Part shown: positions 2,645-55,303 of the stretch, piece after piece
Layout of the letters: every line of letters starts with the position of its first letter
Numbering within the stretch: the stretch's first letter is position 1
Assembly: GCF_044324875.1 (NCBI RefSeq)
Contig: NZ_CP172185.1
Strand: one strand, 5' to 3'
Source of the DNA: Escherichia coli
GTDB lineage: Bacteria > Pseudomonadota > Gammaproteobacteria > Enterobacterales > Enterobacteriaceae
DNA length: 64,000 nucleotides
The notes under the pieces: model-generated
The model's input: only the letters and a program-made list of their open reading frames with translations
Databases searched by the model: none
What the model was told of the DNA's origin: nothing
Translations under genes and position numbers: made by a program

Positions 2645-2826
2645 CAAATGCTCCAGATATCTGCGCACCGAGAAGTGCGCAGAAAGATAATAAATGGATA
2701 TACTCTAAATAATTAGAGTTGCAGGAAGGCGACTAGCGAGTGAATCCCCAGGCGCTTACATAAGTAAGTGACTGGGGTGAGCGAACGCAGACGCAGCACA
2801 TGCAACTTGAAGTATGACGAGTATAT

Positions 2827-4260
2827 TTACAGCATGTTCCAGCCGATCAGCATATTCCACCACCACACACCGAGGGTGATATGTACCAGGAAGGTTAATA
2901 TCGTCAGTACCGCACCGACCAACCACCAGGATTTAATATCGTTGTAACCCACGCCAAAGATGACCGGACCTGCCGCGCCGCCATAGTGAGTAACCATGCC
3001 GCCATAGGAGTTGGAGAACAACAGTGCCAGCGCGGTTAACATTAACGGTGCGCCGGAGACGTTCGCCAGCATGGCAAATACCGGTAACATAGCAACGATA
3101 TAGGCACTACCGGAAGCGAAGAAATAACGAACGATGATGCTGAGGAAAATAATAACGAAGAAAGCAACGTTACCGTGACCATCAAATGCCAGGTTATTTT
3201 TAAAGACTTCAGCTAACCATTCGAAGAATTTAACTTTCGATAATAAGGAGCTTAAGCCGATAATACCGCCGTACCAGATTAAGGTATTCCAGCCGCCTTT
3301 ATTTTTAACCACGTCTTCCCAGGTAACGATACCCAGCAGCAGCATAGTCGCCATAACAACGATTGCCACGGTGGATTCATCAACCCCCAGTGACTTACTG
3401 AAAATCCAGCCCAGCAGCGCCAGCACGAAGACACCGAGCAGCATTTTTTCGCGGATTTTCATCGGTCCCAGTTCGGCAAGGCCCGCTTTGGCGATAGTTT
3501 TGTTATCCACCTTCTTAATTTCTGGCGGATACATGGTGTAAATCACCAGCGGGGTGACCAGCAGCATAATGATACCCGGCAATCCGGCGGCCAGCGCCCA
3601 TCCACCCCAGCTAATTTGCAGGTGCAGAATGTCGTTGATCATTTTCAGCGCCAGAATGTTCCCCGCCATTGCGGTAAAGAACATATAGCTGGTGGTTTTG
3701 GTGACCATGTAAATGGACATCATCAGGTAATGTCCGACACGACGCGGGCTTTTTTCAGGTTCTGACCCCAAAGCCACCGCCACGCTGTTGATGATCGGTA
3801 ACACAATGCCGCCCGCACGCGCGGTGTTAGACGGTGTTGCCGGAGCCAGTACCAGATCGAGAAATACCGTAACGTAACCCAGGCCCAGGGTAGTGCTACC
3901 AATTTTACCAATCAGCAAATAGGCAATACGTTTACCTAAGCCGGTGGTCACAAATGCGGCGCTTAAGGTAAACGCCGAGAACACCAGCCAGGTGGTACCT
4001 GAAGAGTAACCGCTTAATACGGCGGTGGTTTTAAACGCACCGTCGGATAAGTTACCGACCACCACCATGGAGGCAGCAACGGCAATTAACAGTACGACAG
4101 GTTCCGGGAAAGGCTTGATAACCAGCCCCACAATGGCCGCCAGGTAAATACCAAAAAGCACCCACGCCAGTTCGCTTAATCCTGCCGGAGCTGGCATAAA
4201 GCCAATAATACATGGGATCGCTAATATCAGAATTAGCTTCCATAACGATTTTTTATTCAT
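2827..4260 (-). CDS. ybhI: DASS-family anion/tricarboxylate transporter
   Basis: 477-aa polytopic membrane protein; length and position match K-12 ybhI. Confidence 0.85.
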   Translation of the reverse strand: MNKKSLWKLILILAIPCIIGFMPAPAGLSELAWVLFGIYLAAIVGLVIKPFPEPVVLLIAVAASMVVVGNLSDGAFKTTAVLSGYSSGTTWLVFSAFTLSAAFVTTGLGKRIAYLLIGKIGSTTLGLGYVTVFLDLVLAPATPSNTARAGGIVLPIINSVAVALGSEPEKSPRRVGHYLMMSIYMVTKTTSYMFFTAMAGNILALKMINDILHLQISWGGWALAAGLPGIIMLLVTPLVIYTMYPPEIKKVDNKTIAKAGLAELGPMKIREKMLLGVFVLALLGWIFSKSLGVDESTVAIVVMATMLLLGIVTWEDVVKNKGGWNTLIWYGGIIGLSSLLSKVKFFEWLAEVFKNNLAFDGHGNVAFFVIIFLSIIVRYFFASGSAYIVAMLPVFAMLANVSGAPLMLTALALLFSNSYGGMVTHYGGAAGPVIFGVGYNDIKSWWLVGAVLTILTFLVHITLGVWWWNMLIGWNML

Positions 4261-11101: not shown

Positions 11102-11224
11102 GCAAGTTCGGAATTTTCCCAGCAGTTATTGTTAACCTTTGTGAGGTAGATGAGAAAAAATATCGGCAGGAAAAGCAGGAAGTTGAGAAAAAGAAAATGC
11201 CCGACTAAGCGGGCATTCAGGGAA

Positions 11225-11392
<168 letters not shown>

Positions 11393-11502
11393 TCATGAGA
11401 CTATTCTAACCGCTAAGCACAGAAAAGCACTCCCCTTTTGTGCGGTCAGCTTTGCGTGGCGTTCGTTTTCCGTCACAATAAGACTTTTGCCAGGACATTG
11501 TT

Positions 11503-12291
11503 ATGCAGGCCGAAATCCTTCTCACCCTTAAGCTCCAACAAAAATTATTCGCCGACCCGCGCCGCATTTCGCTACTAAAACACATTGCGCTTTCCGGTTC
11601 CATTAGCCAGGGAGCGAAAGATGCCGGTATCAGCTATAAAAGCGCCTGGGATGCCATTAACGAGATGAATCAGTTAAGTGAGCATATTCTGGTCGAGCGC
11701 GCAACAGGCGGTAAAGGTGGCGGCGGCGCAGTACTGACCCGCTATGGTCAGCGACTGATTCAGCTCTATGACTTACTGGCGCAAATCCAGCAAAAAGCCT
11801 TTGATGTGTTAAGTGACGATGACGCCCTGCCGCTGAACAGCCTGCTGGCCGCGATCTCACGTTTTTCACTGCAAACCAGCGCCCGTAACCAGTGGTTCGG
11901 TACCATCACCGCCCGCGATCATGATGACGTTCAACAGCATGTTGATGTCTTACTGGCTGACGGAAAAACACGCCTGAAAGTCGCAATTACCGCACAAAGC
12001 GGCGCGCGTCTGGGGCTGGATGAAGGCAAAGAAGTGTTGATATTACTAAAAGCGCCGTGGGTAGGCATTACTCAGGACGAAGCGGTCGCACAAAACGCCG
12101 ACAACCAATTACCGGGTATTATTAGTCATATTGAGCGCGGCGCAGAGCAGTGCGAAGTATTAATGGCGCTACCCGACGGGCAAACACTGTGCGCCACAGT
12201 GCCGGTAAATGAAGCGACTTCTCTTCAGCAAGGACAGAATGTCACGGCCTACTTTAATGCCGACAGCGTGATTATCGCCACGCTGTGCTAA
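11503..12291 (+). CDS. modE: Molybdate-responsive transcriptional regulator
   Basis: 262 aa; N-terminal HTH and C-terminal Mop domains; synteny. Confidence 0.9.
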   Translation: MQAEILLTLKLQQKLFADPRRISLLKHIALSGSISQGAKDAGISYKSAWDAINEMNQLSEHILVERATGGKGGGGAVLTRYGQRLIQLYDLLAQIQQKAFDVLSDDDALPLNSLLAAISRFSLQTSARNQWFGTITARDHDDVQQHVDVLLADGKTRLKVAITAQSGARLGLDEGKEVLILLKAPWVGITQDEAVAQNADNQLPGIISHIERGAEQCEVLMALPDGQTLCATVPVNEATSLQQGQNVTAYFNADSVIIATLC

Positions 12292-12358
12292 GCGTGTTGA
12301 CAATTTGTTATGAAACACGTATCCCTGTCAGTAATCGCTGCACAAAATGGGATATAAA

Positions 12359-47224: not shown

Positions 47225-48130
47225 TTACATCTCCTGCGGTACAACCGATTTCGCCAGCAACCATTCACGAAATTGCTGCAAGTGCGGTGAGTCAGACTTC
47301 TCTTCCTGCCACGTCATAATAAAACGATTACCGGTACGAATAGGCACATCACAGGGGATCACCATATCGCCACTATCCAAATCATGTTGAATAGCGAAAC
47401 GTGGTAACAGCGCCACGCCGAGATTAGAGCGCACGGCGGCAATCAGCATTGAAAGCAAATCGAAACGTGGTCCGTTGTTGACCAGCGGACTGCTAACGCC
47501 AGATAAGGCAAACCACTCTTCCCAGCCAGTAATACGGGTACTTTGATGCAGAAGTGGTAACTCTGTAAGCAGTTCTGCCACTGACAGTTTTTGATCGGAC
47601 ATTGCAAGCAAACTGCCGCTGCATACCGGCAAAATCTCCTCATCAAAGAGATATTCTACTTCCGCCCAGGGCGCGCAAAAATTTTCGCGCATAATGACAG
47701 CATCGTACTCCCGATTAAGAAAATCGCCGTTATTAGCTAAAGAGTGAATATTAACAATAATATCGGGATGTAACTTTGTGAATTCATGTAAATTTGGGAT
47801 TAACCAGTGGGTACTAAACGTAGGATTCACGGCAAGTTCAATAACCTGAACCGTAGGCTGCCAGGTCATAATGGTATTGGTATCGCGTTCCAGCTTATTT
47901 AATGTTTCTTTTACTATCCCCAGGTAATACTTCCCTGCATCATTAAGAAAAATACGTTTTTTAGAGTGTGAAAATAACGGAGTATGTAAAAATTCCTCCA
48001 GCGCACTCACTTGTCTGAATACTGCACTTTGGGTCAACGCTAACTCCTCTGCCGCTTTGGTATAACTTTCATGACGTGCGACGACCTCAAAAGTCACCAG
48101 CAGCTCCGTTTTAGGTATTTTTCCTCGCAT
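47225..48130 (-). CDS. LysR-family transcriptional regulator
   Basis: 301 aa; N-terminal HTH (YTKAAEELALTQSAVFRQVSALEE). Confidence 0.85.
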   Translation of the reverse strand: MRGKIPKTELLVTFEVVARHESYTKAAEELALTQSAVFRQVSALEEFLHTPLFSHSKKRIFLNDAGKYYLGIVKETLNKLERDTNTIMTWQPTVQVIELAVNPTFSTHWLIPNLHEFTKLHPDIIVNIHSLANNGDFLNREYDAVIMRENFCAPWAEVEYLFDEEILPVCSGSLLAMSDQKLSVAELLTELPLLHQSTRITGWEEWFALSGVSSPLVNNGPRFDLLSMLIAAVRSNLGVALLPRFAIQHDLDSGDMVIPCDVPIRTGNRFIMTWQEEKSDSPHLQQFREWLLAKSVVPQEM

Positions 48131-48169
48131 AATGCCGTCCCTTAAAAATAGTTTAAACCATCAAAAATA

Positions 48170-48191
48170 CATTACTTATTACGAAGTAATG
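48170..48191. promoter_or_regulatory. Perfect 22-bp palindrome CATTACTTATTACGAAGTAATG upstream of the LysR gene
   Basis: 8-bp inverted arms around a 6-bp spacer, 40-60 bp upstream of the start codon. Confidence 0.45.
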
Positions 48192-48693
48192 GTAACCAAA
48201 GCAGCAATAAATAATTTATAAGAATCATGATTGACATTTATAACCCAGTAAGCCTGGCGTGACAAATATCTTAATCAGATAATAATAATCCGAAAAGCAC
48301 AGCGCCTTTCGAATTATCCGGAATCACATTAAGTGAAAATTATTAAATTGATATCATTTATCATATCTGTGGATATTATGATAAACAATCAACAAAGATT
48401 TTATTTTTGATTTATAGCATATCCCTCTAAGAATTTTTGCGATGCTGCAATATCCGGGGTAAAGACCCGATCCTGGCTGACAAATGGCACGACTTGACGA
48501 TAAGCGGTGAACATCGCTTTTGTTGATTTACTTAACGCTACGGTCAAACGCTGGGAAGCCAGTGCATCAGGTAACGATTCGAAATTCGCCGTCGTTCTTA
48601 TTCGTGGCTTGCGGTCGGTTGCGGCAATCCACAGTGGCTGTGGTCATGCAGTCAAGCCAGCGGTCAGATTTCGACCGTGGTTAACATTTAAGG

Positions 48694-48720
48694 CATAAAA
48701 AAGGCCATCATACGATGGCC
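48694..48720 (-). terminator. Rho-independent terminator after sucD (ggccatc…gatggcc plus U-run)
   Basis: Hairpin then TTTTTTTAT on the minus strand. Confidence 0.7.
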
Positions 48721-48795
48721 AACCATGTCGAAACCGACAACCCTTCGCCATTCCTGTAGAGGGAAGCGGCGAGGGCTATTTCTTATTACAGATAT
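48694..48795 (-). ncRNA. sdhX: sucD 3' UTR, the region from which the SdhX (RybD) sRNA derives in E. coli
   Basis: Position only (between the sucD stop and its terminator); I could not verify the sRNA sequence from memory. Confidence 0.35.
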
Positions 48796-49665
48796 TTATT
48801 TCAGAACAGTTTTCAGTGCTTCACCGATATCCGCCAGGCTGCGAACGGTTTTCACGCCTGCGGCTTCCAGAGCAGCGAATTTCTCATCCGCAGTCCCTTT
48901 ACCACCGGCAATGATGGCACCCGCGTGGCCCATACGTTTGCCTTTCGGCGCAGTCACACCAGCGATGTAACCCACAACAGGCTTGGTAACGTGCTCTTTG
49001 ATGTACGCAGCCGCTTCTTCTTCAGCGCTACCGCCGATCTCACCGATCATCACGATCGCTTCGGTCTGCGGATCTTTTTCGAACATTTCGAGAATGTCGA
49101 TAAAGTTAGAGCCAGGGATCGGATCGCCGCCGATACCAACACAGGTCGACTGACCGAAACCGTAATCCGTGGTCTGTTTAACCGCTTCATAGGTCAGTGT
49201 ACCGGAACGGGAAACGATACCCACTTTACCCGGTTTGTGAATGTGACCCGGCTGGATACCGATTTTGCATTCACCCGGAGTGATAACGCCTGGGCAGTTC
49301 GGGCCGATCATACGAACGCCAGCTTCGTCCAGTTTCACTTTCACAGTCAGCATATCCAGCGTCGGGATGCCTTCAGTGATGGTGATAATCAGTTTGATGC
49401 CTGCATCGATGGCTTCCAGAATGGAGTCTTTGCAGAACGGTGCTGGTACGTAGATAACAGAAGCGGTAGCGCCAGTAGCAGCAACAGCTTCACGCACGGT
49501 GTTGAACACCGGCAGGCCGAGGTGGGTGGTGCCGCCTTTACCTGGGGTTACGCCGCCAACCATTTTAGTGCCGTATGCAATGGCCTGTTCTGAGTGGAAA
49601 GTCCCCTGGCTACCGGTAAAGCCCTGGCAGATAACCTTGGTGTTTTTATCAATTAAAATGGACAT
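48796..49665 (-). CDS. sucD: Succinyl-CoA synthetase alpha subunit
   Basis: 289 aa; synteny. Confidence 0.95.
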
Positions 49666-50831: not shown

Positions 50832-50924
50832 GTGTTCTGTCCATCCTTCAGTAATCGTTATCTTTTAAACCGTAGACCGACACCCTATCCACGTCGGTCT
50901 ACAGTGCAGGTGAAGCTTAAACTA

Positions 50925-55120: not shown

Positions 55121-55303
55121 CTGCATTTCTTTTGTAGGCCGGATAAGGCATTCACGCCACATCCGGCGCTGTTTGCCTGATGCGACGCTTGCGCGTCTTA
55201 TCAGGCCTACGATTTCTGCATTTCTTTTGTAGGCCGGATAAGGCGTTCACGCCGCATCCGGCACTGGTTGCCTGATGCGACGCTTGTGCGTCTTATCAGG
55301 CCT
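55121..55303. repeat. Tandem duplication (period about 95 bp) of a REP/BIME unit in the sdhB-sucA intergenic region
   Basis: Two near-identical units starting ctgcatttcttttgtaggccggataaggc… at 55121 and 55216. Confidence 0.8.

Follow-up and report, generated by a model that had tools for sequence, protein, structure and literature searches.

The 665 bp that separate the open reading frame of a LysR-family regulator from sucD (positions 48131-48795 of the window, by which we mean the whole 64,000-nucleotide stretch of Escherichia coli DNA analysed here) are non-coding, and they are very probably a composite produced by gene loss, in which an intact SdhX small-RNA tail, fragments of an rtcB gene and of a histidine-ammonia-lyase-type (HAL) gene, the old 3' flank of that HAL gene and the LysR upstream region now lie side by side. 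An earlier sequence-only reading had described a non-coding interval of about 650 bp, which agrees well with what we find, and had missed that 48401-48698 is ex-coding DNA, in which blastn and tblastn pick out four collinear relics, two of the rtcB family on the + strand and two of HAL/hutH type on the - strand. The description of the interval as AT-rich holds for 48131-48400 (28.9% GC) and fails for 48401-48698, where a GC content of 45-51% agrees with the relic content. We read this second part as leftover pieces of a deleted rtcB paralogue and of a histidine-ammonia-lyase-type gene, which is nothing more than ordinary decay of genes, an already known kind of event, at a locus known to be variable.

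The coordinates of the relics are collected in the table below. At the protein level all four pieces match their sources with 78-90% identity and E-values from 6e-25 to 8e-7 (tblastn); HAL relic 1, for example, reaches 90% with E = 8e-8, and the two rtcB relics match RtcB residues 376-398 (78%) and 451-465 (81%), with E-values of 3e-13 and 8e-7. The relic blastn E-values lie between 1e-10 and 1e-15 overall. The full-length source genes belong to Lyase_aromatic and RtcB in Pfam, and what is left of them is 66 of 556 HAL codons and about 34 of 465 RtcB codons, or some 195 bp and 100 bp of DNA, respectively. The two HAL relics sit in one frame, and the two rtcB relics in different ones. Position, order and orientation of the relics are those of the intact genes between LysR and sucD in E. 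coli RM14723 and MEC2025-PR, and indeed MEC2025-PR gives the same collinear pattern as RM14723 by blastn.

Table. Features of the LysR-sucD interval and its flanks, with counterparts in the RM14723 reference (L005); a slash marks a join.
Feature	Window position	Strand	L005 position	Basis and remarks
LysR-family regulator gene	47225..48130	-		Pfam HTH_1 and LysR_substrate; annotation; at the end of the fumD/methylaspartate block
LysR 5' end, spacer, last 46 HAL codons	47900-48538		13800-14438	
Candidate LysR promoter, TTGTCA (48265-48260)-17-TATAAA (48242-48237)	48237..48265	-		inferred
15-bp-stem hairpin (48284-48318) with U-rich tail	48272..48318	-		kept in hut-bearing alleles
AT-rich palindrome TTTATCATA-N11-TATGATAAA	48357..48385			16-44 nt 3' of the HAL stop codon
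HAL relic 2, last 46 codons and stop	48401..48541	-		tblastn aa 511-556, 89%, E = 6e-25; blastn
63-aa ORF	48507..48698	+		spurious
HAL relic 1, codons 378-397 of the HAL/PAL/TAL gene	48533..48594	-	14781-14842	blastn 87%, E = 1e-13
Main junction HAL/rtcB, CGTCGTTCT/TATTCGTGGCTTGCGG (also CGTCGTTCT/TATTCGTGG)	48590..48614			at most 1 nt of homology
rtcB relic 1, codons ~376-394	48598..48654	+	23926-23982	blastn 93%, E = 6e-15
rtcB relic 2, last ~14 codons and TAA (48696-48698)	48655..48698	+	24156-24199	blastn 93%
End of collinearity with K-12 and mngR-type alleles	48689..48694			just past the sucD/SdhX U-tract
sdhX and sucD, aligned part	48693-48900		29804-30011	
sucD 3'UTR = sdhX (source of the SdhX/RybD sRNA)	48697..48795	-		99 nt, stop codon to U-tract end; K-12 identity
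Rho-independent terminator, stem-loop GGCCATCGTATGATGGCC	48697..48720	-		stem 48703-48720, U6 48697-48702; scan, fold
SdhX seed UUCGACAUGGU (core CGACAU; DNA TTCGACATGGT)	48722..48732	-		exact match to the published seed
SdhX substitution C56U	48740	-		G to A on the + strand; only difference from K-12
sucD, flanking core gene	48796..49665	-		ORF and RefSeq annotation of matching genomes

Beyond sucD, whose stop codon occupies 48796-48798 on the - strand, and away from the interval follow sucC, sucB and sucA; on the LysR side there is an accessory block with cobO, a class I fumarase, a dicarboxylate symporter, DUF4387, an AtuA-like gene, methylaspartate ammonia-lyase and glmE/L/S, at the far end of which come two hypothetical genes and then cydA. 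This block corresponds to the FumD/methylaspartate cluster published for E. coli O157:H7 and other enterobacteria (Kronen & Berg 2015, PMC4682846): according to passages of that paper, the published cluster has the same gene set, likewise ends in an LTTR, is patchily spread in Enterobacteriaceae and belongs to a minority of E. coli, 26.5% there against about 21% here, our figure being the sum of the scar, intact hut/rtcB and LysR-ERIC spacer-rtcB genomes among 5426 complete E. coli. The passages of PMC4682846 drawn on here contain neither the sucD junction nor neighbouring hut or rtcB genes or relics, and the word sucD occurs 0 times in the text of the paper. Our literature search turned up no paper that treats the sucD locus of E. 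coli as a site of hut genes or relics.

Where the resemblance to K-12 ends can be placed to within a few bases. In a megablast comparison with the 5426 complete E. coli genomes, K-12-like genomes match the window only from 48689 rightwards, and the K-12 counterpart of 48689 is the first base of the mngR stop codon. The bases TAAG (48689-48692) are a microhomology common to the rtcB end and the mngR end, and homology by descent to the mngR-type flank begins at CAT, 48694, while the alleles of E. albertii and TPR-type E. coli match from 48695. It follows from these start points that all junction types, whether with mngR, rtcB, TPR or E. albertii sequence, converge within about 8 bp of the U-tract end. 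On the cydA side, K-12 homology stops at 34814. The alignment with K-12 that the sequence-only reading had proposed thus puts the breakpoint inside the interval; collinearity with K-12 over the whole of it, which on that reading would have moved the junction elsewhere, is not seen. Every variant keeps the U-tract, presumably since the terminator is required for the expression of SdhX and sucD.

Related genomes carry the locus in a variety of states. RM14723 has all the modules, running from cydA through the fumD/methylaspartate cluster, LysR, a hut operon, rtcB and mngBAR to sucD. MEC2025-PR carries LysR, HAL/PAL/TAL, hutG, hutI, hutD, a permease and hutU (all on the - strand), then an RtcB-family gene (+) and sucD, without mngBAR; genomes of the wlxctx60 type have LysR, an ERIC-containing spacer, rtcB, mngBAR and sucD, without hut, and their spacer is unrelated to hut, with no hut trace between LysR and rtcB. 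AF22 has a TPR gene only, and in TPR-type E. coli relics of hutU and of the spacer survive. Over the whole interval, WP4-S18-ESBL-07 and the window are 100% identical. Outside E. coli, Escherichia sp. E1V33 (L072) has the same main-junction 25-mer as the window, which is found in other window-type E. coli too; E. albertii has the first hypothetical gene, part of the second, and the hutU-rtcB spacer and first rtcB codons as relics at 68-73% identity; and E. whittamii has the HAL 3' end, a hutU fragment, a 3' relic of rtcB and an rtcB-sdhX junction as in the window. A pattern scan of genome contigs returned 66 loci, only 8 of which are enterobacterial sucD ends, the rest being chance matches. 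Among the 5426 complete E. coli genomes, the scar allele is present over the whole interval in 835, at 95-100% identity (O157:H7 and O145:H28 are included, at 98.8%), the intact hut/rtcB region in 144, an rtcB 3' end abutting sucD in 157 and the wlxctx60-type LysR-ERIC spacer-rtcB arrangement in 145. The k-mers that mark the junctions are CGTCGTTCTTATTCGTGG for the main scar, TTTAAGGCATAAAAAA for rtcB-sdhX and GATAAGCA[CT]AAAAAA for mngR-sdhX.

We favour the view that an old, long arrangement has been whittled down differently in each lineage, K-12 included. The block and mngRAB stand together in RM14723, which argues that the window allele arose by deletions and not by insertion, and the collinear HAL and rtcB relics suggest that the interval records deletions from a longer arrangement; from these comparisons we infer deletion, rather than insertion, as the direction of change. 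The ancestor in Escherichia would have had cydA, the two hypothetical genes, the methylaspartate/fumD cluster, LysR, the hut operon, rtcB, mngBAR and sucD. In one step, some 5.6 kb with mngBAR would have been lost at TAAG, so that the second-last codon of rtcB came to adjoin the first base beyond the mngR stop; the rtcB end ...GTTTAAGG/GGTAA and the mngR end ...GATAAG/CATAAAAAAGG combine to ...GTTTAAGGCATAAAAAAGG, which would give rtcB a new last codon and a stop overlapping the terminator A-run. The main junction would be explained by another deletion, which covered about 8.9 kb between HAL codon ~314 and rtcB codon ~375 and would have taken most of HAL, hutG, hutI, hutD, the permease, hutU and four-fifths of rtcB.

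The relics may then have been trimmed by later, smaller deletions of slippage type between direct repeats of 8-9 bp or so, namely CGCCGTCG (8 bp), CTAA[T/C]GCCA, and CAGCCAGCG (9 bp) or TCA. E1V33 is informative here: it retains a HAL piece of 383 bp (14650-15032) with two copies of CGCCGTCG 186 bp apart, and the window has one, so that the window allele appears to have lost a further 186 bp between the 8-bp repeats. The internal HAL deletion in the window amounts to 342 bp, is in frame and lies between CTAATGCCA and CTAACGCCA. The internal rtcB deletion of E1V33 runs between two CAGCCAGCG copies, and in the window's own the left end lies 13-21 bp deeper, for which either a second step after that of E1V33 or an independent event could account. 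By spread or by persistence, the scar allele would then have come to be carried by about 15% of E. coli, O157:H7 and O145:H28 included. K-12 would represent a different loss, from the hypothetical genes through rtcB, and a separate loss of this sort would explain why K-12 and the window diverge exactly at the SdhX terminator.

Such a sequence of events, a large inactivating deletion and then small deletions between short direct repeats, is what one expects of pseudogene erosion by deletional bias, which Mira, Ochman and Moran are said to have described in bacterial genomes in 2001, and here too relatives preserve intermediates; what is peculiar locally is only that each allele ends no more than about 8 bp from the SdhX U-tract. 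In Escherichia, the cydA-sucD segment looks like a locus of differential loss and not like an insertion hotspot, with K-12 itself a deletion derivative, and a complete hut (histidine utilisation) operon has apparently been lost several times in E. coli, of which about 3% still keep it.

Could the order of events be the other way round at the terminator? It is possible, if unlikely, that rtcB next to the SdhX terminator is the ancestral state and that mngBAR, and possibly hut, were inserted later, in which case the window would not have lost mngBAR at all and would need only the HAL-to-rtcB deletion and small trims. The observed sequences also fit an insertion of mngBAR between rtcB and the terminator. 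In addition, the junction TAAGG/CAT is common to E. coli, E1V33, E. whittamii and a 'Citrobacter sp.' MAG, its identity in the first three implying that it is old, and the wlxctx60-type genomes, which lack a hut trace between LysR and rtcB, are in keeping with a later arrival of hut; with their ERIC spacer in mind, hut could have entered between LysR and rtcB and then been lost again. However, Franconibacter helveticus has an mngR homologue (65% amino acid identity) that is convergent with sucD and whose end abuts the terminator, which implies that the adjacency of mngR and sucD predates Escherichia, and an ancestral rtcB-sdhX state needs mngBAR to have arrived independently at the same base. 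The identity of the window interval would be unchanged under either order.

A second alternative, close to what the sequence-only reading had in mind when it placed an insertion point here, is that the fumD/methylaspartate block is a horizontally acquired island that took the place of mngRAB when it was inserted just past the SdhX terminator, the interval being its featureless junction. We consider this very unlikely. A break with respect to K-12 does exist, and it is sharp, with homology ending at 48689; the block is slightly AT-richer than its surroundings, a mild deviation (47.6% GC against 50.7-51.8% in the flanks); and the cluster is patchy in Enterobacteriaceae according to passages of PMC4682846. 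In these respects, a strain-variable multi-gene block with a sharp K-12 boundary, the locus does resemble integrase-mediated, tRNA-associated islands. The insertion itself is another matter, since RM14723 and wlxctx60 hold the block and mngBAR together, HAL and rtcB relics lie within the interval, and relics of the block ends are found in E. albertii and E. whittamii.

Moreover, the block in the window has none of the machinery of integrase-type islands: it comes without an integrase, a tRNA/tmRNA target or flanking repeats, and its GC shift is mild. The longest word shared by the block ends (34765-34865 against 48640-48740) is 8 nt, within the range of shuffled sequences (mean 6.5, maximum 12), ARAGORN finds 0 tRNA or tmRNA genes in 30000-52000, and no integrase or transposase is annotated from cydA to sucD in the strain with the identical interval, the ORFs there corresponding to metabolic genes. 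The sequence-only reading had itself remarked on the lack of direct repeats and of an integrase remnant, and we concur on both counts, as we do on its failure to see an mngR fragment: a remnant of mngR was sought with tblastn of MngR against the interval and rejected, the best hit being noise at E = 0.17. Block variation is explained by differential deletion, and not by an island of the integrase type.

That a genuine small protein is made from the interval, whether from the 63-aa + strand ORF or from a - strand ORF of the 84-aa type (hypothetical protein WP_001309348.1 in GMM076, RefSeq/PGAP), is hardly credible: the - strand frame does stay open over both HAL relics, since the internal loss of 342 bp between them preserves the frame, and PGAP calls it in GMM076, but in the window it is closed by a TGA at 48646-48644, its product would consist of an antisense-rtcB leader and about 66 residues drawn from two stretches, not adjacent to each other, of a 556-aa enzyme, the interval is unannotated in most RefSeq genomes, neither a Pfam domain in the interval nor a Pfam match to the 63-aa ORF was found, and the + strand ORF follows the RtcB frame only for its last 16 codons, running out of frame through rtcB relic 1 and antisense through the HAL relic before that. 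The sequence-only reading had likewise taken the 63-aa ORF as probably non-coding and as running into the terminator, and indeed its stop codon, TAA (48696-48698), overlaps the run of A opposite the U-tract. In terms of annotation, the 63-aa ORF can be discarded, and about 300 bp that are blank or hypothetical (WP_001309348.1) in RefSeq become HAL and rtcB pseudogene fragments.

The 270 bp nearest to LysR are the old HAL-LysR spacer, 87% identical to hut-bearing alleles. They hold a hairpin that folds significantly in the window (z = -5.85) and in L005 (z = -5.66), and this is probably the old terminator of the hut operon. The sequence-only reading had placed the LysR promoter in this AT-rich DNA; both hexamers of our candidate, from which a transcription start near 48230 would be predicted, show no variation across six alleles whose identity averages 89%. 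A strict sigma-70 scan returned no - strand promoter, and the candidate fails that scan. The palindrome pointed out in the sequence-only reading is real, though statistically marginal, since a 9-nt perfect arm occurs in 4% of shuffles (p ~0.04), and within this 9-nt-arm palindrome lies an ATC-N9-GAT dyad, the motif of LysR-type operators (T-N11-A box), ATCATATCTGTGGAT, at 48360-48374. As an operator for LysR it was considered and rejected: there is no second copy, a similar dyad occurring neither in front of glmS nor elsewhere in the window, the arms are no better conserved than their surroundings in the six-allele alignment, the fold is not significant (z = -1.4), and the palindrome sits about 95-120 bp upstream of the candidate -35, away from the expected operator placement near -65.

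A regulatory consequence of the deletions can at least be imagined. They left the LysR gene in the same orientation as the very highly transcribed sdh-suc operon and only about 566 bp downstream of it, so that read-through could follow, past the SdhX and relic hut terminators, and couple transcription of the TCA-cycle operon to the LysR regulator in scar-allele E. coli. We regard this as a long shot; if true, a glutamate-fermentation regulator would be coupled to the TCA operon in 15% of E. coli, O157:H7 included.

What all alleles keep is the SdhX sRNA and its terminator. SdhX (RybD) was reportedly the subject of a study by De Mets et al. in 2019, and it is known as an Hfq-dependent sRNA processed from the 3' end of the sdhCDAB-sucABCD mRNA, in which, in the numbering of Miyakoshi et al. 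2019 (PMC6393394), G62, which is specific to E. coli, is needed for fdoG and the C34 region for katG. The sequence-only reading had named the sucD terminator and 3'UTR as the source of SdhX, and rightly so: the 99-nt stretch agrees with K-12 at all but one base and folds as its K-12 counterpart does, the GC-rich terminator stem of 7 bp and the U-tract, which is the Hfq site in SdhX, match K-12, and G62 and the C34 region are unchanged. The seed, whose conservation that reading had proposed to check, is the one published by Miyakoshi et al. (PMC6393394), lies just 5' of the terminator and is invariant in a 4-way alignment. In position 3' of sucD, seed, G62, katG-pairing region and terminator, this is thus the SdhX locus of K-12, and the difference comes past the U-tract, where an rtcB relic is found here and mngR in K-12. 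With Rfam 15, in gathering and E-value modes, no family reaches threshold in the interval (the best overlap is isrD, E = 1.3), and an SdhX/RybD family surfaced in neither search of the window, so the identification rests on K-12 identity and the published seed. The sole Rfam matches in the window are naRNA4/REP, outside the interval. By its sequence, then, the SdhX tail is intact in the window allele. The single substitution, C56U, lies on the 5' side of the seed (by 8 nt) and of G62 (by 6 nt) and costs the upstream stem its last pair, the predicted fold being about 2 kcal/mol weaker (-38.6 against -40.8 kcal/mol); it might shift the target preference of SdhX, and it is rare, the exact 57-mer being present in 44 of the 5426 complete E. 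coli genomes.

The cydA-side end of the block, which is the fumD/methylaspartate cluster lying between cydA and sucD, is also old, because the two hypothetical genes that come next after the limit of K-12 homology on that side (window 34814/34815, about 465 bp upstream of cydA) persist in E. albertii, where we find degraded versions of both at 55-68% amino-acid identity. At the other end of the block, RefSeq annotates a ‘hypothetical protein’ over the relics beside sucD in strain GMM076, and this product is a chimera of two HAL (hutH-type ammonia-lyase) relics and an antisense rtcB relic, whose frame is interrupted by a TGA in the window.

Descriptions of E. coli usually give the species as hut-negative. 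In ~3% of complete E. coli genomes, a hut operon that looks intact lies beside sucD, and it comprises genes for a HAL-type lyase and a permease together with hutG, hutI, hutD and hutU, without hutC.

Coordinates of the features discussed
Feature	Sequence	Coordinates	Strand	Detail
Hypothetical gene, cydA side	window	35153-36097
Hypothetical gene, cydA side	window	36178-36600
WP_001309348.1	E. coli GMM076 (L075)	1202-1456 (= window 48401-48655)	-	84 aa; RefSeq annotation
hut operon	E. coli RM14723 (L005)	14301-22041
hut operon	E. coli MEC2025-PR (L003)	11202-18943
IS200/IS605 tnpA	E. coli Ch1 (L001)	19389-19847
IS200/IS605 tnpA	E. coli Ch1 (L001)	2710-3168
naRNA4 (REP/BIME-type)	window	55137-55207		77.6 bits
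naRNA4 (REP/BIME-type)	window	55232-55302		86.8 bits

SdhX, the sRNA from the sucD 3' UTR, carries C56U in the window (48740), a rare allele that just 44 of the 5426 complete genomes of E. coli share and that falls between the katG-pairing region and G62. In the rtcB-mngB spacer of RM14723 there is a hairpin, GGCCATCCGAAGATGGCC (L005 24286-24305), similar to the SdhX terminator stem, GGCCATCGTATGATGGCC; this hairpin did not serve as the deletion junction.

The closest full-length match to the window is Ch1, and the window lacks both of its tnpA insertions, one of which separates cobO from LysR and the other of which sits close to ybgC. An ERIC-like element (L006 5723-5857) fills the LysR-rtcB spacer of strain wlxctx60, and an intergenic ERIC-like repeat at window 2690-2825 shares 83% identity with it.

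Spacer lengths in the suc-sdh region vary between strains. Both naRNA4 elements lie in the sucA-sdhB spacer, which measures ~350 bp in the window and Ch1 as against ~200 bp in WP4-S18-ESBL-07, while the sucB-sucC spacer spans 93 bp in the window (50832-50924) and ~274 bp in the K-12 derivative (L002 8143-8416), the longer form presumably reflecting a REP insertion in K-12.
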